A stretch of DNA of 64,000 bases from contig CAWIYV010000011.1 in NCBI GenBank assembly GCA_963840455.1, forward strand, positions 640,001-704,000, in the 5' to 3' direction. This stretch comes from Nitrospirota bacterium (lineage in GTDB: Bacteria > Nitrospirota > UBA9217). The position numbers were made by a program, and so were the translations under genes. This document shows, piece by piece, positions 1-63,624 of this stretch. How positions within the stretch are numbered: the first letter of the stretch is position 1; every line of letters begins with the position of its first letter. The notes under the pieces were generated by a model, which saw only the letters and a program-made list of their open reading frames with translations, made no database searches and was not told where the DNA came from.

Positions 1-3000
1 CTCGATCACTATCGTGTCAGAAGTCCCGCCCGCGGCCGTGATATTGAGATTACGAATGTCCACAAGCCCTGTGCCCTTACTGCCGCCCGTTGGGCTGGTG
101 TTAGAGGCAGAGGCGCCCGCGGGCACGGTAACGAGGCTGAGAGTGCCCGGGACGAACATCGGGGATGCATTGAGCCTGTCCAGTTCGTCGGTAATGGAGA
201 AATTGTTAACTGTTGCTGTGCTGATGTTCCTGACCAGGATGCGGTACCGAATCATATCGCCAGGTGTTACGACTGCGCCCGGTTGCTTGCCCGGCGTCAC
301 GTTCGTAAAGGTCTTTTGGAACACCAAAACCGGCTGCACGCCAAGCGTGGTCGCGGTCACGGGTCCAACGCAGTAGACATTGGGCGCCGTGACATTCGGG
401 CAGCCCGCGCCGGTTCTTTCATACGGACTCTGTCCATCGAGCGAGGTCCAGTCGGCGATCACACCGTTTAATATCGTGCTGTTGGCAATGACGACAGTGG
501 CACGGTAGGTGAGTATCAAGGTCTGGCCAACAGGGATATCAAGGCTCCCGTCGCCATTCCCCTGCCCCCAGATGAGCGGGCCGTTTGGCTGGCCAGTGGG
601 TGTCGCTGCGAATCCGGGGACAGGAACACCATTGATCGTAGCTGTAGATACAAAGCCCGAATACCACGAAAGTCCGGCCGGAAGAGTGTCTTTCACGTCG
701 ACGTCGAAGGCCGTCGAGTTCCCGGTGTTCGTTGCGATAACGTCATATTCGAGGATGTCGCCGCTCACGGCCGCATCACCCGGCTGTTTGCCTGGTGTAA
801 CGTTGGCCGCGGTCTTATTGAGCGTCAGTTTCGGTTCTACAATGGTAACGAAAGAGGTGGATGCGGTCACCGACTGTACCGCGCCAGTAGCACCATTCGT
901 ATAATTGACGATAGCGGAGTTCTGAAGCGTTCCGCCTGCCCTGGTCAATAGGTCGTTATTTGCGCGTCCGGAGTACTTGATGCGAATGGTCGGGTTGACC
1001 GCGTTTACGGCACTGTCGTCCTCACTGGCGGTGATCACCGTACCGATGTTCCATATGGCGTTGCCGGTCGTGTTGTCAGCCGGAAACGAGGTGAATGCCG
1101 CTTCGCCGGGTGAACTGCCATTAATGCTCGTAATGCCGATGAACTCATAAGTAATGTCGTAGCTGGCATTGTTCGAAAGAGCATAACTTAATCCCGTCGC
1201 TGCCAGGTTGTCGGTGACCGAGATATTCCTCGTAGTGCCCTCCGGAAGCTGTATCTCGATCTGGAACTGTTTCTGTGCGCCGATGGCGGGAATGACTGCT
1301 GGAGACAGGTCGGTCTTCGTTACCTGTACGGCCGGGACCAGGAATGAGGTGCTGGCAGTCGTTTCATAATCGTTTATGGCGTTCCCGGCGTTGGGCAAGG
1401 CGCCATTACGCATACCCATGTCGCTGCCGTCCGCTCCTATGCTTCCGGTGCTGTTAAGGGCCGTAGTTTGGCCAGGAAGCGATTGCCAGCTGGCCTGAAT
1501 GGTATTGGTCAGGATCTCCTGCGGTTGTGCAGTGCCCGCGACCTTGACCTTGAAGGTGAATGTCCGGGTGGCTCCCGGAGCTATGGAATACTTCGGGTTG
1601 GATGCGTTCCAGCTGAATATCGGGCGATTGGCACCAAGCGATGCCGTATCAACGATGTCGGGCATATCCACGCCGCCCGCAGACCCGGGAACATAGGTCA
1701 AGTCCCTGACAGCAGCGAGGTCATCCAAGACCCGCAGGTTGTACGAAGTCGCCGTGCCGGAGTTGGTGGCCGTCACGGTCACGGTAACGGTGTCGTCGGC
1801 ATCGCCGCTTGCGACCGAGAATGCCTTTGTAATGGTGATCCTCGGTTCCTGCACGACAACGGCGGCCTCTCCGTAGGTAAGGTTGACATGCTGCCCTGTC
1901 TGGTCAATATAGTTCGCGGTCACGTTGGTCGAGTTGCCGCCATTTCTGATCGCGCCGCCATTATTGGTATTTGCCGTATTCTCTACCCGAGCGATGAAGC
2001 TGACCTTGAGGTCGTAACGATTGTTAGTCGTCCCTTTCGTGACCTCCTGGTCGCCGAAGTTCCACATAACCAAGTTGTTGGAACAGGTCGGCGTGATCGT
2101 TCCGCCCGGGACGAAGCCTGCCGCGGAATACGGCGCCGCGCTTAAGTTTACGGCCGGCGCCTCGGCGCACCGTACGCCCACAGGGAGTTCGTCGCGGACC
2201 ACAAAGCTCCGGAGCTGCGAGACGGGAATTGACGTGGTCAGTTCGTATCTGATCTCCTCGCCTACCGACACCGGCTGGGGGCTGGATGCGCTCAAGGGTG
2301 TTTGGGAAAGGTTGACGATCTTCTTCGGCTGTGTCAGTACCGGAATGATCCTGACCGTGGCATGGGCGTCGGCGGTCGCATAGACACGTGCTCCGCCCCT
2401 GTCGCCGTTTGGTTTCTGCGGGACGCTCTGGTGGCCGGAGGGGCCTTCAAGGGTGTCGTATGAAGCGTTCGCGGTGTTGCCGAACTGCTGGAGCGGCGCC
2501 GCGCTGTCGTCAAAGTCAACGCGGTAGTAGAGCCTTACCGAGTTACCGGCGTCGATACGCTGCAGAGCCTTGCTGTGGGTATAGGAGAACTGGACGGTCG
2601 CCGGGACGCCGTTTTTGACCGTGTTGTCGGTCGTGATCGTCCCTTCACCGTCGGGGTCTGCGCCGTCCATCTGCCCGTCACCCTCATTGTCCAGTCCATC
2701 GCTCCCGAACGGAAGAACATAAGCGAGGTCGCTCGCGTCCTGGGTATCGGTTACTATGACATCGTACGCCGGGGAGCGCGGGACGCCGTTGCTGCTTGCT
2801 TCGTTGGTGATCGTAAGCCGGTAGATGTAGGAGCTGTAGGCGTCCCCATCATCGGCAAGCGTCACGAAATGGCTGCAGGCCGGTCCCAAGCCGTAGAGCG
2901 TTTCATTACAGACCTCTTTAACGATCGTTACCCTCGGCTCTCGGACGGTGAGATCAACGCGCCTTCCTGCCTCGCGCGGGTAGCCCACGGTATTCGGTCC

Positions 3001-5856
3001 CAGGTCATACACTTCTTCGAGGTTCGTAATGGAGTTGAAGAATACAGCCTGAAAATATGAAACGAGGATGTTGCGGCTGTTGGCTGCGTGGAGGTTCGGG
3101 GCAGCGCTCACGTTTATGGGATTATTCATGATGCGGTTCGACGTATTGACGCGGAACCACTCATCCTTCACTGTGATGCGCTCTGCGGGAACGGCCTGGT
3201 TGAACGTCCAGTTATAATATCCTTCATCTAAGACTTGAGGAGCGGGCGGAACGAGGCTTACCCCCCTGTTAAGGCTGATGCCTTTGATGGCGGTAGTCGT
3301 ACTGCCGAAGGGGGCGATGTTTGCAAAGGGATCCGTGGACGATATGTATCCCTGTCCCGCCGGAGATTGGTCAATGACCTGGATCCTCTGGACCGCAATG
3401 TAGGTAAAGCCCGGGGTCTTGAAGCCGAACCAGCCGCCTGTATCGATATGGAACGTGCATTCTTCGCCGATCTCTACAAAGCGGTCGGGGAGCGGCGGCA
3501 GCGGCACATTGTTTTCCGTGCAGTTGCCGTACTCGGACTTGACAAGATTGAATCCAATGACACGCGCCCTTATGCCGTCCAATGTGTAGTTGTTCGCGCG
3601 GTCGGTGATGCCGTCCGGACGCGGGGTCGGCGTCGGGAACCACAAAGGCGTGCCGTCCCATAGCCTGATCTCTCCTACCGTGTCCGCGCGGAACGTCAGG
3701 TCGTCTGCCGCATTGGGGTCAACATTTTTGATGACCTGGAAGGCATAGTTGACGGTAGCGCCGGGGGCGATCCTTCCTCCGGTGCAATCGTAGACTATTG
3801 CAGTAACCGGTATGGCCGCAGGCAGTGTCCAGGCAGCGAGCGGCGGCGGGTTTGTGGTCCTGGTGCAGGCAGCAGGCGCTGTCGATACTGCCATCCCCTG
3901 CCCAAAAGTGACGTAGGTATGGTACTGGCTCCTATCGTTATTGTTGCTTGCGTCATGCCCGCCGTTGTTCGTTACAGCGACCGTCAAGGGCAGCGGCTGG
4001 GTCACGTCGTTCGTAAGGATGAAGATAAGTTCCGTGCCGATGATGTCAACGTCGAGGTCCTCCGGGAATGCCGGGGGGCTGTCGTTAAAGGTAATGGCCT
4101 GATGGCCTTGCGTTGCGCAGAATGGGTCAAAATCGACGGTCAGCCTGTTCGCCAGTGTTGTCTGGTTGGCAGGATCTGTTCCCGGCGGGCTGCTGTTCGG
4201 GGCCTCGACCCGGACATCGAGATTGGCGACCTTGTCGTAAGATGACGTCTTTATAAGAACGATGGGAAAGGTCACCGTAAGGACGTCGCCCTCACGGAGC
4301 ATATTGAACTGGTCGGCGTAGATCGGGTGCGTGGTCGAGCTGGTCAGGGTGAATATAGGCTGCGTATTCGCGAGCGGTACGGCGGGATTGGTGGATGTCA
4401 AGGTACCCGCGGCCGGATTGGTCCATGTGATGGTATCTACCATTCCCGGATAGCTGCCGTAGGCGGGGTCGATCGTATTGACGCCAAAGGTGGCTCCCCG
4501 TACTTGGAGGGCTTTGGTAAATCCTCCTGCCCAGTACGTGGGGTCAATGACATACTCGGCTGGAAGAAGGTCGGTAAGCCGGATATTCTTGACCGTGCCG
4601 CCGGACCCATTGGTGATGGTGATGGTCACCATGCCTTTGCTTCCTACCGGTTGTGATGTATTGATGCCGGTGATCGCGCGCCCTATGTTAAGGTTCGCGC
4701 GCTGGCCGTAAAGCGTATACAGGGTTGCAACAGCGTTAGCCGGCGTTCTGCCGGTAGACGTTGCGGTGATGCCTCCGGCGGGCGGTTGCACTCCGCAACC
4801 CCACTGGACGCCGCTCACGGTATTGGTCTTGCTGCTTACGCATGAACCGTCAGCCGTGATCTTTCCTACGAGATAGAAGGAGGCGGTACCACCGGCAGTG
4901 ACATCCACTTCAAAGCCGTCCGGGGAAATTCCCATGTTGCCGAAGGGATTTGTAACAACAAAGGCGGAGATATTGTTCGTTGCGGCGACACAGGGAGAGC
5001 CGCCCGGCCGTACGCCGTTATTGGCGGCGATCGCATTGGCGCTTGCGGCCGTCGGACAAGCATGGTTAATGACAAGATTATTGGCCTGCATGACATCGTT
5101 AAAGCGAAGGTCCTGAAGTCCCGCAAGGCCGGTATTGTTCACGCTAACACGCCAGACAACATCATCATTGTTATTGCCGTATACTGGATTGCTGCGGCTC
5201 CCCTCGCGCTGGTTCGCGTCGTAATTCCAGCCGGTCTTCGTTACGGCCGGGACAGGTTCGTGAAGGGGCAGGGTATCCACTGCGTTCTGCGGAGAGTCGG
5301 AGCAGCCGGAGTTGGTGCCGAAGGTCAGGTTCGCCTGGATGGTACGGTTTGCGCTGACCAGGCCTTCGGGATTGGTGGTGCGTCGAACAGCAAAAATAAT
5401 GGTAATGGTCTCTGCGTTTGATACCGGCCTCTGGTCAGAATCAAGGTTTGCCAGGGCCGGGATCTGTGCAGACGTCCAGGTAAGCACAGAACCGCCGCCG
5501 CTGATCACCGGGGCCGCCCCCGCGACTAACGGCCCGCCGTTAACGCTATATCTGATAGGCGTCGGCGCGGTCGGGTCGTAGGTGAGGCCGGAGCTTCCCA
5601 GATTCTCCGTGACCGTCATGCCCGTCATCGCCGCTCCGGAGTACGGGTTCGCAACGACGACCGAAACATAACTGTAGCCGCAGAGTTCCGCGTAGCTGGA
5701 GTTTCCGGTCAGGTCATGGTCAATGAACTCTGGGGCATTGTTCTTGATGTCGCAGGGAGCCGCAAAGGCTGTGCCTGCAGCTAAAATAAGGATCGCTGCG
5801 TATGCGGCTGCTTTACCAAGGTTCCTCATTAAGCTTGTTGATAATGTATGCTTCAA
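1..5856 (-). CDS. Giant secreted repeat protein (DUF11 / isopeptide-forming Ig-like domains), >1952 aa, runs off the left edge
   Basis: Absent from the ORF track because no stop lies in the window. TTG at 5856 with SD GGAGAGG 8 nt upstream; in-frame ATG at 5829. Signal peptide MRNLGKAAAYAAILILAAGTAFA. Spot-translated segments include GDILEYDVIATNTGNSTAFDVDVKDTLPAG and GEEIRYELTTSIPVSQLRSFVVRDELPVG. The same frame reads ...GGTSDTIVIE at position 1. Not every codon was checked. Confidence 0.85.
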   Translation of the reverse strand, partial: MKHTLSTSLMRNLGKAAAYAAILILAAGTAFAAPCDIKNNAPEFIDHDLTGNSSYAELCGYSYVSVVVANPYSGAAMTGMTVTENLGSSGLTYDPTAPTPIRYSVNGGPLVAGAAPVISGGGSVLTWTSAQIPALANLDSDQRPVSNAETITIIFAVRRTTNPEGLVSANRTIQANLTFGTNSGCSDSPQNAVDTLPLHEPVPAVTKTGWNYDANQREGSRSNPVYGNNNDDVVWRVSVNNTGLAGLQDLRFNDVMQANNLVINHACPTAASANAIAANNGVRPGGSPCVAATNNISAFVVTNPFGNMGISPDGFEVDVTAGGTASFYLVGKITADGSCVSSKTNTVSGVQWGCGVQPPAGGITATSTGRTPANAVATLYTLYGQRANLNIGRAITGINTSQPVGSKGMVTITITNGSGGTVKNIRLTDLLPAEYVIDPTYWAGGFTKALQVRGATFGVNTIDPAYGSYPGMVDTITWTNPAAGTLTSTNPAVPLANTQPIFTLTSSTTHPIYADQFNMLREGDVLTVTFPIVLIKTSSYDKVANLDVRVEAPNSSPPGTDPANQTTLANRLTVDFDPFCATQGHQAITFNDSPPAFPEDLDVDIIGTELIFILTNDVTQPLPLTVAVTNNGGHDASNNNDRSQYHTYVTFGQGMAVSTAPAACTRTTNPPPLAAWTLPAAIPVTAIVYDCTGGRIAPGATVNYAFQVIKNVDPNAADDLTFRADTVGEIRLWDGTPLWFPTPTPRPDGITDRANNYTLDGIRARVIGFNLVKSEYGNCTENNVPLPPLPDRFVEIGEECTFHIDTGGWFGFKTPGFTYIAVQRIQVIDQSPAGQGYISSTDPFANIAPFGSTTTAIKGISLNRGVSLVPPAPQVLDEGYYNWTFNQAVPAERITVKDEWFRVNTSNRIMNNPINVSAAPNLHAANSRNILVSYFQAVFFNSITNLEEVYDLGPNTVGYPREAGRRVDLTVREPRVTIVKEVCNETLYGLGPACSHFVTLADDGDAYSSYIYRLTITNEASSNGVPRSPAYDVIVTDTQDASDLAYVLPFGSDGLDNEGDGQMDGADPDGEGTITTDNTVKNGVPATVQFSYTHSKALQRIDAGNSVRLYYRVDFDDSAAPLQQFGNTANASYDTLEGPSGHQSVPQKPNGDRGGARVYATADAHATVRIIPVLTQPKKIVNLSQTPLSASSPQPVSVGEEIRYELTTSIPVSQLRSFVVRDELPVGVRCAEAPAVNLSAAPYSAAGFVPGGTITPTCSNNLVMWNFGDQEVTKGTTNNRYDLKVSFIARVENTANTNNGGAIRNGGNSTNVTANYIDQTGQHVNLTYGEAAVVVQEPRITITKAFSVASGDADDTVTVTVTATNSGTATSYNLRVLDDLAAVRDLTYVPGSAGGVDMPDIVDTASLGANRPIFSWNASNPKYSIAPGATRTFTFKVKVAGTAQPQEILTNTIQASWQSLPGQTTALNSTGSIGADGSDMGMRNGALPNAGNAINDYETTASTSFLVPAVQVTKTDLSPAVIPAIGAQKQFQIEIQLPEGTTRNISVTDNLAATGLSYALSNNASYDITYEFIGITSINGSSPGEAAFTSFPADNTTGNAIWNIGTVITASEDDSAVNAVNPTIRIKYSGRANNDLLTRAGGTLQNSAIVNYTNGATGAVQSVTASTSFVTIVEPKLTLNKTAANVTPGKQPGDAAVSGDILEYDVIATNTGNSTAFDVDVKDTLPAGLSWYSGFVSTATINGVPVPGFAATPTGQPNGPLIWGQGNGDGSLDIPVGQTLILTYRATVVIANSTILNGVIADWTSLDGQSPYERTGAGCPNVTAPNVYCVGPVTATTLGVQPVLVFQKTFTNVTPGKQPGAVVTPGDMIRYRILVRNISTATVNNFSITDELDRLNASPMFVPGTLSLVTVPAGASASNTSPTGGSKGTGLVDIRNLNITAAGGTSDTIVIE

Positions 5857-5967: not shown

Positions 5968-6002
5968 CTTTTTTTGCTCATAAATCACCTTCGGGCCAGA
6001 CT

Positions 6003-6542
6003 TCATGACCCTTTTCTGTAAGCCGACGGCGTATGACCGGTCACCTTTTTGAAGATCCTGCCGAACCCGGTATTGTCGGCAAAACCCACATATGCGGCGA
6101 TCTCGGCTATGCTCTGGGGACTGGTGCGCAGAAGTTCCTTGGCCTTTGTGATCCTCATGCTGTTTACATACTCCTGATAGGACATGCCCACCACTTTCCG
6201 GAATGTTCTCGAAAAATGGGACGGGGACATGCCGGCGAGACCGCAAGCGGCGTCTCTGCTGATATCTGTCCTGTAGTTGTCGTTGACGAATAGAACGGCC
6301 TTCTGTATCTTGTGATACTGGAGATTGATGACGGCGGCTGACGGTGCTTTTGGCTCGTCCTCTGTCGGGGTTCCGAGAAGGCTGTCCTTTAGGAAGGGTT
6401 TCCTCAGAAATCCGCTGTCGCTGCTGCTTACCACCCTGGGACCCATTTCCTCGACTCCTTCTGGCGTGCCGCTATGGTCGAGGACGGGTGGCGTGATCCC
6501 TTTGTGTTCTTCCATGACTTCGTCCTTGTTCCCTTTGAACAA
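6003..6542 (-). CDS. AraC-family regulator (HTH domain only)
   Basis: AGMSPSHFSRTFRK...SIAEIAAYVGFADNTGFGRIFKKVTGHTPSAYR; no receiver domain. Confidence 0.85.
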   Translation of the reverse strand: MFKGNKDEVMEEHKGITPPVLDHSGTPEGVEEMGPRVVSSSDSGFLRKPFLKDSLLGTPTEDEPKAPSAAVINLQYHKIQKAVLFVNDNYRTDISRDAACGLAGMSPSHFSRTFRKVVGMSYQEYVNSMRITKAKELLRTSPQSIAEIAAYVGFADNTGFGRIFKKVTGHTPSAYRKGS

Positions 6543-6599
6543 TTAAATGCGGAAATGTCTGTAACGGATGAACGATACCGGAGTTCAGGAGCTCCTGTC

Positions 6600-6633
6600 T
6601 CGGCTTTTTATGACGTGCGCAAGGACTTTTATG
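6600..6633 (-). promoter_or_regulatory. Second copy of the 21-bp-period operator, upstream of the AraC-only gene
   Basis: TCGGCTTTTTATG (6600-6612) and AAGGACTTTTATG (6621-6633); flanks resemble 5934-5975. Confidence 0.5.
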
Positions 6634-6659
6634 CTTTTTTGAGCAAAAAGTGCTTTTTG

Positions 6660-7314
6660 ATGCGGGATCTCAGGCAGGCTTCTGTAGAAAGATGGCGTAT
6701 AGCCGGTGAGCTTTATGAAAATTCTGGCGAGGCCGGTTGGATCGGCAAAAACGAGGAAGACGGCGATTTCAGTCACGCTCCGCGTGCTAGTGCGGAGAAG
6801 GTTCTTGGCCTTCGTGATTCTGCGGCCATTAAGATAGTCCTGTTAGGGCAAGCCCATCACCTTCTTGAATATTCTCGAGAAGTGGATGGGGACATGCTGG
6901 CCTCCCGGCAACGGCGTTGAGGCAGATATCGGTTCGGTAGTTGTCGTTGATGCAACGAACGGCCTGCTGGATCTTATACTACTGGCTGGGGGTGACGGTG
7001 GAAGGCGGCGTCCCCGGCAGCGCCGGTGTATTGGGCCCGGGTAGGATGTTCTTTCTGTTGGGCTTCTTCAGGTAATTGCAGGCGCCGCTCCTGCATGCCT
7101 CGACCTCCACCTCTTCGTCGCCGTATGCCGTAACGATGAGAACGAGAATGGATGGTGCAACGTCCTTGATTTCTTTCATGACATCGCTGCCTGACATTGC
7201 GGGCAACCGGTATTTTACGACGACAAGATCAGTGTCGGGGCGCCGCTTTACCCGTTCTACCGCAACCAGGCCGCTCCGGGCCATGACAATTCGATAGGCG
7301 TAGGAATAACCCAT
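6660..7314 (-). pseudogene. Decayed duplicate of the REC-AraC response regulator
   Basis: Colinear with 7445-8305 at DNA level, but with a deletion after YLKKP, an in-frame TAG at about 6979 and a frameshift near 6885; split across ORFs 6979-7380 and 6585-6776. Confidence 0.85.
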
Positions 7315-7444
7315 CTTCTTCACCTCGTTCCTCGGCAGGGTCCTGCTGCATGCACTGCTGTGACCAGGAAGATCCCGCATCGGGAAAACACGAGCAGAGA
7401 CAAACCTCTTCTGTCTCGGCTTTTTATGCTTGTGGGGAAAGAAA

Positions 7445-8305
7445 TTACTTCTGGGGCAGGCTTCTGTAAGTGGAAGGCGTATGGCCGGTCAGCTTCTTGA
7501 AAATTCTGCCGAAGCCGGTCGGATCGGCAAAACCGAGGGAGACGGCGATATCAGTCACGCTCTGGGCGCTGGTGCGGAGAAGGTTCTTGGCCTTCGTGAT
7601 TCTGCGGCCGTTAAGATAGTCCTGATAGGGCAAGCCCATCACCTTCTTGAATATTCTCGAGAAGTGTGCCGGTGACATGCCGGCCTCCCCGGCAACGTCG
7701 TCGAGGCAGATATCGGTCCGGTAGTTGTCGTTGATAAAACGAACGGCCTGCTGGATCTTATGGTACTGGCTGGGGGTGACTGCGGCAGGCGGCGTACCCG
7801 GCGCGGCCGGCGTATTGGGCCCGGGAAGGATGTTCTTTCTGCGCTGTTGATCCGCGTGCCGGAGGGCGAGATAGAAGTCGATCTTCGTGGACAGCTCGGA
7901 TATGCTGAAGGGCTTCTTCAGGTAATCGCGGGCGCCGCTCCTGAATGCCTCGACCGCCACATCCTCGTCGCCGTATGCCGTGACGATGATAACGAGTACG
8001 GAGGGCGCAACGTCCTTGATCTCTTTCATGACATCGATGCCAGACATGTCGGGCAGCCGGTATTCGATGACCGCGAGATCGATGTCGCTGCGCCGCTCCA
8101 CCCGCTCGATCGCAATCCGGCCGGACTGGGCCGAAATGATTCCGTAGGCGTCGGAAAGGTTCTCGATGTACCCAGTATCGCTGTCAACGATCAATATCTG
8201 GGAAGGCGCGGTGTTTCCCACGGTGGGCGGACACGCGTTGTTTGCACCTTTCCGGCGACGTTTCGTGCCGTGGTTTCTCGATTGCTTGTCAATCATTGTG
8301 GTCAT
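7445..8305 (-). CDS. Response regulator, receiver + AraC HTH
   Basis: ILIVDSD...DLAVIEYRLPDMSG...TAYG...DYLKKP receiver fold followed by AraC HTH. The phospho-acceptor position appears to be E rather than D. Confidence 0.9.
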   Translation of the reverse strand: MTTMIDKQSRNHGTKRRRKGANNACPPTVGNTAPSQILIVDSDTGYIENLSDAYGIISAQSGRIAIERVERRSDIDLAVIEYRLPDMSGIDVMKEIKDVAPSVLVIIVTAYGDEDVAVEAFRSGARDYLKKPFSISELSTKIDFYLALRHADQQRRKNILPGPNTPAAPGTPPAAVTPSQYHKIQQAVRFINDNYRTDICLDDVAGEAGMSPAHFSRIFKKVMGLPYQDYLNGRRITKAKNLLRTSAQSVTDIAVSLGFADPTGFGRIFKKLTGHTPSTYRSLPQK

Positions 8306-8600: not shown

Positions 8601-8620
8601 TGGTGGAGGCGGCGGGAATT
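8601..8620 (-). repeat. tmRNA 3'-end copy (outermost att site)
   Basis: TGGTGGAGGCGGCGGGAATT, 20/20 match to 63275-63294, followed by TAATAGTTTGTCCAA. Confidence 0.95.
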
Positions 8621-16049: not shown

Positions 16050-16204
16050 TAAGGTTGGATAATACGTCATTTTATCAAGCAACGCAATATCAAGTTAGGA
16101 TTATATTGGTCTTTATTATATCTATTGTAAAGCCTTAACGATGATAATTTATATCTAGGACGTGTGTGAAAGCCTCACAACTGGCGATTCAAATCCGAGT
16201 GGCA

Positions 16205-16485
16205 CATACCCTCAAAATTACCCCAACTTGTGATTGCTGGAAGACAAAAAAAGAGCTAAATCCGTTAGGGACTTAGCTCTGGTCTCCATCTGAGTTCGAT
16301 GGAGACTTTCGGAAAAAATCAAAATAACACTATTATATCAAATAGTTATTGTGGAGGAGGTGGGAATTGAATTGTTTGTCCAACCGCTCGATATTCCGCG
16401 TATATATTTTCGCGATATTACGAGATACCCCAAATAGATACCCCATGAAAGCTGGATGTTGTAAGACATTGCTGGACTAATTCGG
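16205..16485. repeat. Junction: type-A end, degenerate tmRNA copy (16349-16371), arm module
   Basis: 17/20 match to the core; IHF box TATCAAATAGTTA at 16336-16348; ATACCCC x2; ends CTGGACTAATTCGG. Confidence 0.9.
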
Positions 16486-19313: not shown

Positions 19314-20501
19314 ATGGAATTGAGCATCAAGGACGAGAAGAGCGAGGATGCGAAGGCTCGGGCCGAGGCAGGCATTGCTGTTAAGACAAGGAATCAATAC
19401 AACCGCATGGAATGGGCCGGCGCTTTCGGCGACGTCGGAACGCTGATCCCTTTTGTCGTTGCATATATCACGATCGTGAAGATGCCTCCCCTCGGCCTTC
19501 TCTTCATGTTCGGCGTTATGCTGCTCGCGTCCGGACTCTACTACCGAACGCCGCTTCCCATCCAGCCCATGAAGGCCATCGGTGCGGCGGCAATCGCGGG
19601 AGGCATCAGCCCCGCTGCCCTGTACGGTGCAGGCTTTTCGACCGGGCTTTTCTGGCTTCTTGCAGGCATTACCGGAATTCTGCGGCCGATTGCCAAGCTG
19701 GCAACAAAGCCCGTTGTGCGCGGTATCATGCTCGGCCTCGGCCTCACGTTCATGGTTGACGGTGTCAACCGGATGAGAACAGCGCCCGTTCTGGCTGGCA
19801 TCGCCCTGGTCGTCACCTATATTCTCCTCACCAATCCCAAAGTCCCGGCAATGTTCATGCTCCTTATCATCGGCGTTTTGTCCGCGGTGATCATGAACCC
19901 TCAGCTTCTATCAGAACTGGCGAAGATCCACATCGGGTTCAACATGCCGGTGTTCAGCCTTCCGATGATCACCTGGAACGATTTTGTGACCGGCACGTTG
20001 CTTTTCACCCTCCCCCAGATCCCGCTGACCCTCGGCAACGCGGTCATCGCAATTACCGCCGAGAACAACGAACTCTTCCCTGATAGGCCGGTTACGGAGA
20101 AGAAAATTGCAATTTCTCAAGGCATCATGAACCTCATCGCACCCCTCTTTGGCGGCATTCCGATGTGCCACGGCGCCGGCGGCATGGCCGGACATGTCCG
20201 CTTCGGAGCAAGGACCGGCGGAGCACTGGTCATCCTCGGGACTTTGCTGATTTTCATCGCTCTTTTTCTAAGCGATTCTGTCTCCATTATCTTCAAAATA
20301 TTCCCAAACGCGATCCTGGGCGTAATCCTGTTCTTTGCCGGTTCGGAGCTCGCCATCGTTGTAAGAGATATCGGCGACAAGAAGGCCGACTTTTACGTGA
20401 TGCTCGTGGTTGCAGCTGTTGCCATGTGGAATATGGGAGTCGCGTTTCTCGTTGGCGTGATCATGGATAATGCACTCAGAAAAGAGTGGCTTAAGATTTA
20501 G
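19314..20501 (+). CDS. MOT1-family molybdate/sulfate transporter
   Basis: GAFGDVGTLIP, PLPIQPMKAI, PMCHGAGGMAGH.RFGARTGG. Confidence 0.88.
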   Translation: MELSIKDEKSEDAKARAEAGIAVKTRNQYNRMEWAGAFGDVGTLIPFVVAYITIVKMPPLGLLFMFGVMLLASGLYYRTPLPIQPMKAIGAAAIAGGISPAALYGAGFSTGLFWLLAGITGILRPIAKLATKPVVRGIMLGLGLTFMVDGVNRMRTAPVLAGIALVVTYILLTNPKVPAMFMLLIIGVLSAVIMNPQLLSELAKIHIGFNMPVFSLPMITWNDFVTGTLLFTLPQIPLTLGNAVIAITAENNELFPDRPVTEKKIAISQGIMNLIAPLFGGIPMCHGAGGMAGHVRFGARTGGALVILGTLLIFIALFLSDSVSIIFKIFPNAILGVILFFAGSELAIVVRDIGDKKADFYVMLVVAAVAMWNMGVAFLVGVIMDNALRKEWLKI

Positions 20502-20569: not shown

Positions 20570-20914
20570 TAATAGTTTGTCCAATCACCTGAATTACAGT
20601 CATTATCAGAAATTCGATTTCTCAAACATACACCCAAAAGTACCCCCAACCATCTAGTCCTAGAAATAAAAAAAGGAGCTAAATCCGTTAAGGACTTAGC
20701 TCTGGTCCCCACCTGTGTTCAATGGAGACTTTCGAAAAAAAACAAATATATCACTGTAAAAACAAATGATTATGGTGGATGCGGCGGGAGTTTAATAGTT
20801 TGTCCAACCGCTCAATATTTCACGATTATTATTCAGCCCTTATATATATGACATACCCCAAATAGATACCCCTGAAATTCTGGATGTCATGATGACCGCA
20901 TTGGACTAATTCGG
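20570..20914. repeat. Junction: full type-A end, tmRNA copy (20773-20792), arm module
   Basis: TAATAGTTTGTCCAA at 20570 and 20793; core 18/20; terminator 20668-20703; ends TTGGACTAATTCGG. Confidence 0.92.
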
Positions 20915-51058: not shown

Positions 51059-51147
51059 GAGGGCGGCGGAATCGAACCCGCGTGCGAAAGCCATCAAACC
51101 TAAAGCACATACATGTTTATACCCTCGCTTGATGCTCGGCTCCTCCT
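51059..51147 (-). pseudogene. Diverged fragment of a tmRNA 3' region
   Basis: Aligns by eye with 63280-63368 with scattered substitutions; CCA end missing. Confidence 0.8.
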
Positions 51148-51206
51148 GCCTTTCTGTTCATGATAAAAAAGAGGGAATTCCTAATTGGAATCCAGGGCAC
51201 GCAATA

Positions 51207-51544
51207 TAATAGTTTGTCCAATCGCCTGAATTGCTGCCACTATTAGAAATTCGATTTGTAAAACATACCCCAAAAAATACCCCAACTTGTGAACGCTAGA
51301 AAACAAAAAAAGAGCTAATTCCTTTAAGGAGTTAGCCCTGGTCCCCGCCTGTGTTCAATGGAGACTTTCGGAAAAAATCAAAATATCACGATAATGTCAA
51401 ATAGTTATGGTGGAGGCGGCGGGAATTTAATAGCTTGTCCAACCTATTGAAATTCCACGCTTTATTTTCGGCGTTATTTCGACATACCCCGAATTAATAC
51501 CCCTAAAATGCTGGATGTCATAAGCTCTAGATGGACTAATTCGG
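51207..51544. repeat. Junction: full type-A end, tmRNA copy (51408-51427), arm module
   Basis: TAATAGTTTGTCCAA at 51207; core 20/20; ATACCCC pairs on both sides; ends TGGACTAATTCGG. Confidence 0.95.
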
Positions 51545-51672
51545 CCGTTATTGCACATCTAACCTATATATACCTTGCTAAAAAGTGAACGACGCGCGTT
51601 TCGACGGAGCCGGTTCGTACCGCAATGACTACCGATAAGAAACGACGCAGCAACAAACTCAATCTTGACCGC

Positions 51673-57120: not shown

Positions 57121-57469
57121 TAATAATTCGTCCAATCACTTGTATTACTGTCACTACTTGCAGCGCGATCTATTTCAACATACCCTAAAAACTACCCCAA
57201 CTTGTGAATGCTAGAAAACAAAAAGAGAGCCAAATCCTTTAAGGACTTAGCTCCAGTTCCCATCTGTGTTCGATGGAGTCGATAGAGACTTTCGGAAAAA
57301 ATAAAAATATCACTGCAATATCAAATAGATATGGTGGAGGCGGCGGGAATTGAATAGTTTGTCCAACCGATTGAAATTCCACGCTGAGTATTTTGGCGTT
57401 AAATCGACATACCCCGAATTAATACCCATAAAAAGCTGGATGTCATAAGATCTTGTTGGACTAATCTGG
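57121..57469. repeat. Junction: full type-A end, tmRNA copy (57332-57354), arm module
   Basis: 23/23 match to 63275-63297; TAATAATTCGTCCAA at 57121; ends TTGGACTAATCTGG. Confidence 0.95.
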
Positions 57470-63274: not shown

Positions 63275-63624
63275 TGGTGGAGGCGGCGGGAATTGAACCC
63301 GCGTCCGAAAACCTTCAACCGAAAGCTCATACATGCTTATCCCCTCGTTTACAGCTCTCGCTTCCTCCGGCGCCTCAGGGAAAGCTCCGGGATCAGCCAG
63401 CCCGGTAGTTCTTATCGCTCCGCCCCGGACATAGCGAAGAGACCAGCCCGAATTGTGACATCTCTTCAGCCGCTCAGGCGGCAGCCGGGAGACGCGCTAC
63501 TTAGTTAAGCAGCGTATGCCAGTTCGTTATTGGCAGTTCTATTTTGCCATGTGTTTTACGAGCCCCATGGCACCTCGGCATGCAACTCCCGATCTCTCGA
63601 TCCCCGTCGAAGCCAGTCGCCCCC
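63275..63624 (-). ncRNA. ssrA: tmRNA
   Basis: 5' GGGGGCG...CTTCGAC; 3' GGGTTCAATTCCC-GC-CGCCTCC-A-CCA with G3:U pair; tag ANNELAYAA* at 63534-63505; 350 nt. Confidence 0.97.

Follow-up and report, generated by a model that had tools for sequence, protein, structure and literature searches.

An "empty" 200-bp element in a gene array at the tmRNA gene of a Nitrospirota bacterium is probably an inherited long attachment arm

Why does a cargo-less element of about 200 bp recur beside unrelated genes in one bacterial chromosome, and does it tell us how these genes were collected? The question is raised by a stretch of 64,000 nucleotides (the window) from a Nitrospirota bacterium, which corresponds to C11:640001-704000 of a genome of 4.03 Mb assembled in 14 contigs (G000); positions given below with no contig name are those of the window. 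The initial annotation had seen in the element both a unit devoid of cargo and of its own tmRNA copy, and part of a device by which two small end modules would turn arbitrary DNA into a cassette. As an observation this holds in part: the copies and their motifs are there, and the exact borders are not where they had been placed. The interpretation divides as well, into an emptied-unit ancestry that the comparison of copies supports and a capture mechanism that it does not.

The window holds part of a tandem array of about 107 kb, comprising at least 11 gene units and inserted at the 3' end of the tmRNA gene. The intact tmRNA gene (ssrA, 63275-63624, minus strand) is the attachment site of this array. 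Copies of its last 20 nt, hereafter called cores, are found in the window at 8601, 16349, 20773, 26400, 51408 and 57332, and outside it at C11:618819, at C11:621401, in diverged form at C11:597640, and once on contig C5. Copies of the tmRNA 3' end thus occur at 10 places in the whole genome, nine of them on C11, where they share a single orientation and lie upstream of the tmRNA gene. The oldest core is decayed, lies at about C11:596166 and adjoins a native GC-rich terminator; the array's length and its number of units follow from the core positions out to this copy. Read on the plus strand, each unit consists of a core (20 nt), a left arm, the cargo and a right arm, after which the next core begins, the core that concerns us most being the reverse complement of the tmRNA end at 51408-51427 (plus strand). 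As in Islander-type islands, made by tyrosine integrases at tRNA or tmRNA genes, the target gene is regenerated and its displaced 3' fragment stands as a direct repeat at the far end. The cargo of this genome's array consists of stress, metal, efflux and envelope genes, among them RND pumps, KatG, MsrAB, MprF, ars genes and a P-type ATPase.

Two occurrences of the core call for separate mention. The 7.7-kb contig C5 opens, at C5:77-236, with a core and a left arm followed by cargo that is 90% identical to that of a related locus (L021, genome G003), and is probably a further array unit at which the assembly broke within the repeat. A lone decayed core followed by a complete left arm lies at C11:302727-302882 (L012, 7727-7882), 337 kb from the array, with no tmRNA gene and no right arm near it.

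Within this layout, the mini-element corresponds to a right arm in its long form, made up of a trailer, a terminator and an additional copy, about 85 nt long, of the module found in left arms (we call this form M-type). The copy at 51207-51407 (minus strand) is the right arm, or P' arm, of the unit whose cargo occupies 26555-51198, and it lies directly downstream of the tmRNA 3' copy on the minus strand. The other copies that had been reported are likewise present: a second at 20570-20772 and a third at 57121-57331, as well as one at 16204-16348 that lacks its first 55 nt or so on the left (all on the minus strand). A related locus of G003 (L022) carries the cargo of the corresponding unit (unit A) at 93% identity, followed by a full-length mini-element at the position of the truncated one. 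The fifth copy, at C11:621260 and thus beyond the window, has suffered an internal deletion. The M module itself spans 51207-51290 (plus strand) and contains the 15-mer TAATAGTTTGTCCAA and two ATACCCC repeats (51265-51271 and 51277-51283). Each copy presents this order, with a TAATAGTTTGTCCAA-like 15-mer first and then two ATACCCC-like repeats 12 nt apart. The presence of this second motif and of the pair ahead of the terminator, as annotated, was confirmed, both words being far above what shuffled sequence gives: the window has 9 occurrences of the 15-mer at 3 mismatches or fewer (0.86 expected) and 7 of the paired ATACCCC motif of the left arm (0.91 expected), and none of 100 shuffles reached 9 or 7, respectively. 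We regard these motifs as putative arm-type protein-binding sites.

The rest of the mini-element contains, on the minus strand, a hairpin followed by a T-run, and then an A/T-rich stretch that continues up to the tmRNA copy at 51408-51427. The hairpin, GAGCTAAYTCC..GGAATTAGCTC, folds as an intrinsic terminator at about 51304-51338 (approximate limits, minus strand), and together with the A/T-rich trailer it is common to all 10 right arms of this genome; it is predicted to end tmRNA transcription about 90 nt past the mature 3' end. Taken as a whole, the mini-element does not fold as RNA more stably than its shuffles (z = -0.41). The end described as an IHF site proved weaker than had been claimed. 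A site at 51395-51407 (plus strand), abutting the core, shows by eye one mismatch to what we take to be the IHF consensus; this consensus is matched exactly at two of the nine junctions of this genome, with near matches by eye at some others, and is matched six times across the whole 108 kb on both strands.

Right arms are not all of this type. Among the 10 of this genome, five are M-type, four are of a shorter type and one is decayed. The M module is not indispensable, since 4 of the 10 arms have no recognisable copy of it, including the arm that now adjoins the tmRNA gene. Related genomes place the M-type arm in this very position: it stands directly behind an intact tmRNA gene in four related loci (L016 of G007, L018 of G033, L077 of G072 and L052, a metagenome contig), and is followed there by cargo, left arm and core. 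In G007, G033 and G020, the DNA beyond the last core bears no relation to the M-type arm and has other terminators, hence the arm is borne by the element. The mini-element, as read from these comparisons of sequence, serves as the tmRNA-proximal arm of its unit.

The left arm, or P arm, is about 135 nt long, and that of the next unit lies at 51428-51562 (plus strand), with the 15-mer, two GATATTMC words, two ATACCCC words, three TGGAY-like words and the end ...GCACATC. A consensus built from 45 copies starts at the core with (T)AATAGTTTGTCCAA, proceeds through two GATATTMC words and two ATACCCC repeats to GCTGGATGT and TTGGACTAATTCGG, and runs on for about 17 nt to ...GGACATC, beyond which conservation falls to background. 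The sharp stop after TGGACTAATTCGG that the initial annotation had described is therefore not seen: TGGACTAATTCGG stands at 51545, conservation in the 45 copies continues for some 17 nt to about 51562, and two repeat families (D3 and D9) extend the left-arm match to 51565-51569. It follows that TGGAC, one of three TGGAY-like words about 21 nt apart inside the left arm, is not at the cargo border. Conservation in the arms is motif-like, with GTCCAA and ATACCCC at 0.9 or more and spacers at 0.5-0.7, and the distal left arm contains TTGGAC, the inverse of GTCCAA, conserved at 0.8-0.9. No consensus fold of the arm was found on either strand with RNAalifold. In a sub-family of junctions (L076 of G075, L079 of G031, L019 of G020, and L036 at 7000), identity with the tmRNA gene stops after about 14-15 nt (…GGCGGCGAC…) before AATAGTTTGTCCAA, a pattern which suggests a crossover within the last 14 nt of the tmRNA gene.

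The left edge of the mini-element was examined in 15 copies and turned out not to be a single point before TAAT, as had been proposed. Homology begins 8-10 nt to the left of TAATAG, with the consensus GCGCAATTK, and the retained length varies. These bases, at 51199-51206 (plus strand) in the copy studied here, are the decayed last bases of a former tmRNA core (CGCAATAT) and constitute the true left edge of conservation. Counted manually, the decayed core to the left of the M module matches at 15 of 21 positions in L024, 14 of 21 in L025, and 8 of 21 in the window copies w20571 and w51208. Just outside the mini-element lies a second terminator-like hairpin (51165-51193, minus strand), which we read as a remnant of the preceding unit's right arm. 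Such a remnant is significant in 2 of 14 copies (p<0.004; the one at 51165-51193 and that of L025) and borderline in two more, and its distance from the M module differs between copies.

The ancestry of the mini-element can be approached through its outer module. Its first 85 nt or so are a paralogue of the left-arm module, with the same 15-mer at the same spacing from the ATACCCC pair. Mean identities are 0.71 between M modules, 0.73 between left-arm (P) modules and 0.53 between the two kinds, and all 15 M modules fall in one clade, apart from the 45 P modules, with a support of 0.889 in a tree that rests on about 90 aligned positions. The existence of a single clade argues that M modules were inherited and not remade at each capture. 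One locus, L077, has a genuine left arm with an M-like proximal half. The DNA that precedes the M modules on the left resembles the left arm no more than background does (scores of 21 or less), and no fused site of P arm and M module was found there. Together, the left-arm paralogue, the decayed cores and the terminator remnants support, as ancestry, the proposal of a cargo-less unit that lacks its own tmRNA copy. Most likely, from the sequence of these copies, the mini-element and about 40 nt to its left represent a degenerate array junction plus an emptied unit, inherited since as an extended right arm.

Sequence of tmRNA origin also lies nearby in another form. Between msrAB and the mini-element, the stretch 51062-51149 is a longer tmRNA-derived fragment that agrees at 73 of 87 positions with tmRNA 63282-63371 (score 84, against 25 or less in 200 shuffles); it lacks the last 7 nt or so of the gene and is preceded by a terminator on the minus strand. 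A similar, shorter fragment follows the MOT1 gene in L050. An ssrA element of a different kind may have left the fragment at 51062-51149 as its scar.

Comparison with relatives suggests that the units do behave as units, in that congeneric arrays differ by whole units and break at the core. G003, a genome of the same genus, has its KatG unit (left arm 89% and cargo 90% identical) immediately on the native flank; in the present genome one meets this flank about 64 kb and at least five units to the left, the break being at the core. Likewise, the flank of the core at 8601 leads in L049 (93%) into another unit. Unit A has a first gene that recurs (91-92% identical) behind a full left arm in L040 and L047, and in L040 also behind an M-type arm, unlike in this genome, where its position shows a truncated left arm and a short right arm.

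The array type is spread over the group. The junction pattern (up to 2 mismatches) was found in 7 of 36 other genomes of the family, and the M-module pattern in 7 of 63 other genomes of the order. Larger collections gave 3 records in genome_contigs, of which two carry the arm and one looks like chance once the arm is checked, and 31 contigs in metagenome_contigs, about 25 of them real by the same check; two patterns searched in viral_contigs gave no match. Six loci (L013, L026, L037, L032, L043 and L048) show no arm beyond the pattern, look like chance matches inside genes and were set aside. One locus (L034) presents three units in 4 kb, and L014, a metagenome-assembled genome labelled Nitrospirota, has the same array. 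In eight public sequencing runs no more than 0.23 of the sampled words were present, always as contigs, and the contigs of four runs show joints with sides of 28-35 nt between repeated arms, derived from relatives; none of these joints speaks for excision or against it. As a separate observation, the cargo of the related cassettes (L013-L054, 127 ORFs scanned) includes defence-type genes: 3 ORFs code for a TOTE-system primase domain and 5 for ResIII helicases.

What could move such units was sought at several levels. No recombinase family was recognised by Pfam in the 40 ORFs of the window or in 20 ORFs of its flanks, so that the integrase gene expected inside an Islander-type island is absent (no PF00589 in array or flanks). 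The genome contains two intact PF00589 genes and four fragments, the intact ones being, from their length and sequence, probably XerD and XerC, and it has no match to PF00239 (serine recombinase). A custom profile built from 21 diverse catalytic domains retrieved only its positive control among 2000 six-frame ORFs from 45 related loci, the array itself and contig C5, and phmmer with XerC and XerD matched none of 185 ORFs. In the related loci, where 127 of 130 non-overlapping ORFs were compared with Pfam, there was no recombinase among the best 25 of 153 families. PF00589 matches in 11 related genomes were not on the array contig or near the array (the array contig of G061-G063 is either deduced from the names of records or unplaced); in G075, assembled in two contigs, the nearest match on the array contig is about 950 kb away, and G033 has only two intact PF00589 genes and a fragment. 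An integrase located 12 kb from a core-like word in G019:C75 was rejected, as it belongs to a tRNA-Glu island. Finally, a functional element with the same arms was found neither in the 3 records of genome_contigs nor in the 31 contigs of metagenome_contigs, and viral_contigs offered none (0 records). Most of these genomes and contigs are metagenome bins, which often lose mobile helpers, and the missing integrase is for this reason weak evidence.

The reading that we favour, at a probability of roughly 0.6, takes the mini-element for the long P' arm of islands that carry no integrase and follow one another at the 3' end of ssrA, an arm descended from an emptied unit and served by an integrase acting in trans. 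Read along the tmRNA gene, each unit brings a new trailer with an IHF-like site, a terminator, cargo, a left arm of about 135 nt and a 20-nt tmRNA copy, and every internal array junction therefore has the layout of a lambda-type attP, that is arm, core and arm, about 360 bp in all. The extra outer module of about 85 nt would descend from an ordinary array junction and an emptied unit; that ancestral junction would have lost its trailer and most of its core, so that it no longer recombines, and the composite would since have been passed on as a lengthened right arm. Its 15-mer and ATACCCC pair probably act as arm-type binding sites on the P' side. Insertion and removal of units at the core would be the work of a tyrosine integrase that acts in trans and is encoded neither in the arrays nor in the genome bin; we infer such an enzyme because conservation of the arms is motif-like across many sources. 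Several points weigh against this explanation, besides the right arms that lack an M module. The attP reading is one of analogy, as no integrase was found anywhere. Recombination at the core, which never parts the cargo from its arms, does not by itself account for a single inherited M lineage that stands next to unrelated cargo. Last, the terminator remnant reaches significance in only 2 of 14 copies, and the clade has a support of 0.889 over about 90 positions.

A broader formulation seems to us doubtful: the arrays of this Nitrospirota family would be an integron-like, gene-collecting platform at ssrA, built of cargo and a split site of about 360 bp and served by an unlinked recombinase, in which the mini-element would be a cargo-less unit that enters array junctions, is fixed by decay of its left core, and so would mark the fusion of units and the absorption of neighbouring DNA into larger cassettes.

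Among the other explanations, the one that survives best, unlikely as we judge it, holds that M-type elements are cargo-less units consisting of attachment sites only, which inserted repeatedly at array cores and were kept where the left core was damaged. It would account for the single M clade beside unrelated cargo, as well as for left cores and preceding terminators damaged to varying degrees, of which L024 and L025 resemble intermediate stages; yet these variable remnants may equally be later decay of a single ancestral arrangement. The free copies, or fused empty site, that the initial annotation had proposed as a check were not encountered, as no copy has two intact cores in 18 core-to-core spacings, the smallest of which is 1611 nt. 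A circle of about 220 bp would also be a poor substrate for recombination.

Somewhat less probable still is that the arrays are fossils, in which no site-specific recombination takes place at present, units are exchanged, if at all, by homologous recombination within junctions after DNA uptake, and the mini-element has no present function. Motif-like conservation is difficult to reconcile with this scenario, as it persists in 45 left arms and 15 M modules of many sources over 45-98% pairwise identity and beside unrelated cargo, and so are the congeneric arrays that differ by whole units and break at the core. In its favour, arms are truncated or internally deleted at 8601, 16204 and C11:621260, decayed cores are found at both ends of the divergence range, and no recombinase other than XerC and XerD was found in the genome.

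The capture model is, in our opinion, quite improbable. It supposes that TGGAC and GTCCAA are inverted half-sites at the borders of the cargo, and that recombination with secondary sites loads arbitrary DNA between the two end modules. Neither word, as it turns out, is at an edge of conservation, which passes TGGACTAATTCGG on one side and extends on the other 8-10 nt, and in some copies 20-45 nt, to the left of TAATAG. The break points are scattered, with core remnants of unequal length and variable distances to the terminator, and the M modules constitute one clade. The model can appeal to the conserved inverse pair TTGGAC and GTCCAA, to the bases left of the M module, which resemble the core end (AATTK) in the way expected after crossover at a secondary site, and to the decayed core with a full left arm at C11:302727, off the array. 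Cargo homology was expected to end exactly at the proposed border; however, unit B and L050 (86% identical) part at 20501, the stop codon of the MOT1 gene, with 68 nt still to go to the mini-element, and unit C differs from its relatives by indels of 0.6-4 kb between the left arm and katG. A fused empty site was seen neither in the comparison of left flanks nor in the core-to-core spacings. The mini-element is not evidence for a capture mechanism, and the unit boundaries are corrected accordingly.

Least credible of all is that the host's XerC/XerD pair moves the units, as in Xer-exploiting elements: these two are the only intact tyrosine recombinases of the genome (with a similar situation in G033) and GTTTGTCCAAC agrees by inspection with 7 of 11 positions of the XerD arm in a dif candidate at C7:451052, located with what we take to be the reference dif words, but this agreement is not significant given the many possible offsets, the canonical 11-6-11 layout of that candidate is absent from the core and its surroundings, which do not resemble the host dif, and repeated words within long arms, together with an IHF-like site, make up a lambda-type layout and not that of Xer.

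Returning to the integrase-less islands with long arms, the closest published cases are the ssrA islands of Dehalococcoides and the cis-mobilizable elements (CIMEs). In the parts of McMurdie et al. 2011 (PMC3146451) that we draw upon, several ssrA-specific islands of Dehalococcoides stand in tandem within about 100 kb downstream of ssrA, with the insertion point assigned to the T-loop; certain units lack integration genes, and these the authors discuss as cis-mobilizable, while 16 islands carry a serine recombinase module, DsiB/DsiA. The tandem layout at ssrA is the same here, but no unit has a recombinase, there is no PF00239 counterpart to DsiB/DsiA, and the conserved ends are long (about 135 and 200 nt) and contain repeated words in the manner of tyrosine-integrase sites. 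CIMEs, in the sections used of a review (PMC5704250), are decayed ICEs or IMEs beside a functional element; their integration and transfer genes are gone, attL and attR persist, and they accrete one after another where a target gene has its 3' end. The present units also keep both attachment ends with no recombination genes, and no transfer genes appeared in the Pfam scans of window and flanks, which did not target them specifically. Against what these sections of the review describe, there are at least 11 units in this one genome and dozens in metagenomes, no functional partner is in view, and the conserved part is limited to the attachment arms.

Two better-known systems help to place the junction. 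A lambda-type attP has a core, arms of 100-200 bp with direct repeats (arm-type sites) on both sides, and an IHF site beside the core. This layout is shared, but here it is known from sequence alone, is accompanied by neither integrase nor excisionase, and has its right-arm repeats in a module copied from that of the left arm. Integron arrays and CALINs are composed of promoterless or self-contained units with one recombination site each, the recombinase lying outside the units. The likeness to them is in logic only: the site of the present array is the tmRNA 3' end with long arms conserved in sequence, RNAalifold gave no attC-like fold, and no IntI-like gene lies beside the array. In titles and abstract openings, a full-text search for Nitrospirota tmRNA islands returned no account of this array. 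Its distinguishing aspects are the long right arm with its duplicated module and the size of the array.

The main interest of the locus is that of an array as a cassette platform that would be mobilised in trans. Some 107 kb of stress, metal, efflux and envelope genes are arranged in units that have no mobility gene. If a trans-acting integrase exists, this would be a large, cassette-organised reservoir of adaptive genes in an environmentally important phylum, and one that automated island finders keyed on integrases would miss. The narrower outcome lies in the unit boundaries and in an "empty" element that is an inherited arm.

Some minor features may be added. A dispersed repeat of about 75 nt (L049, 769-842), REP- or MITE-like, occurs at more than 200 places in the genome with 75-93% identity, and none was seen inside the window. 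An open frame longer than 1952 aa (1-5856) runs off the window on its left, inside the unit that starts at C11:621401. The stretch 6002-8156 contains three to four tandem-like repeats of 150-300 nt with 65-90% identity (families D1, D6, D8 and D10), spaced about 660-850 nt apart around the gene of an AraC-type response regulator (7445-8305), and these look like paralogous gene copies.
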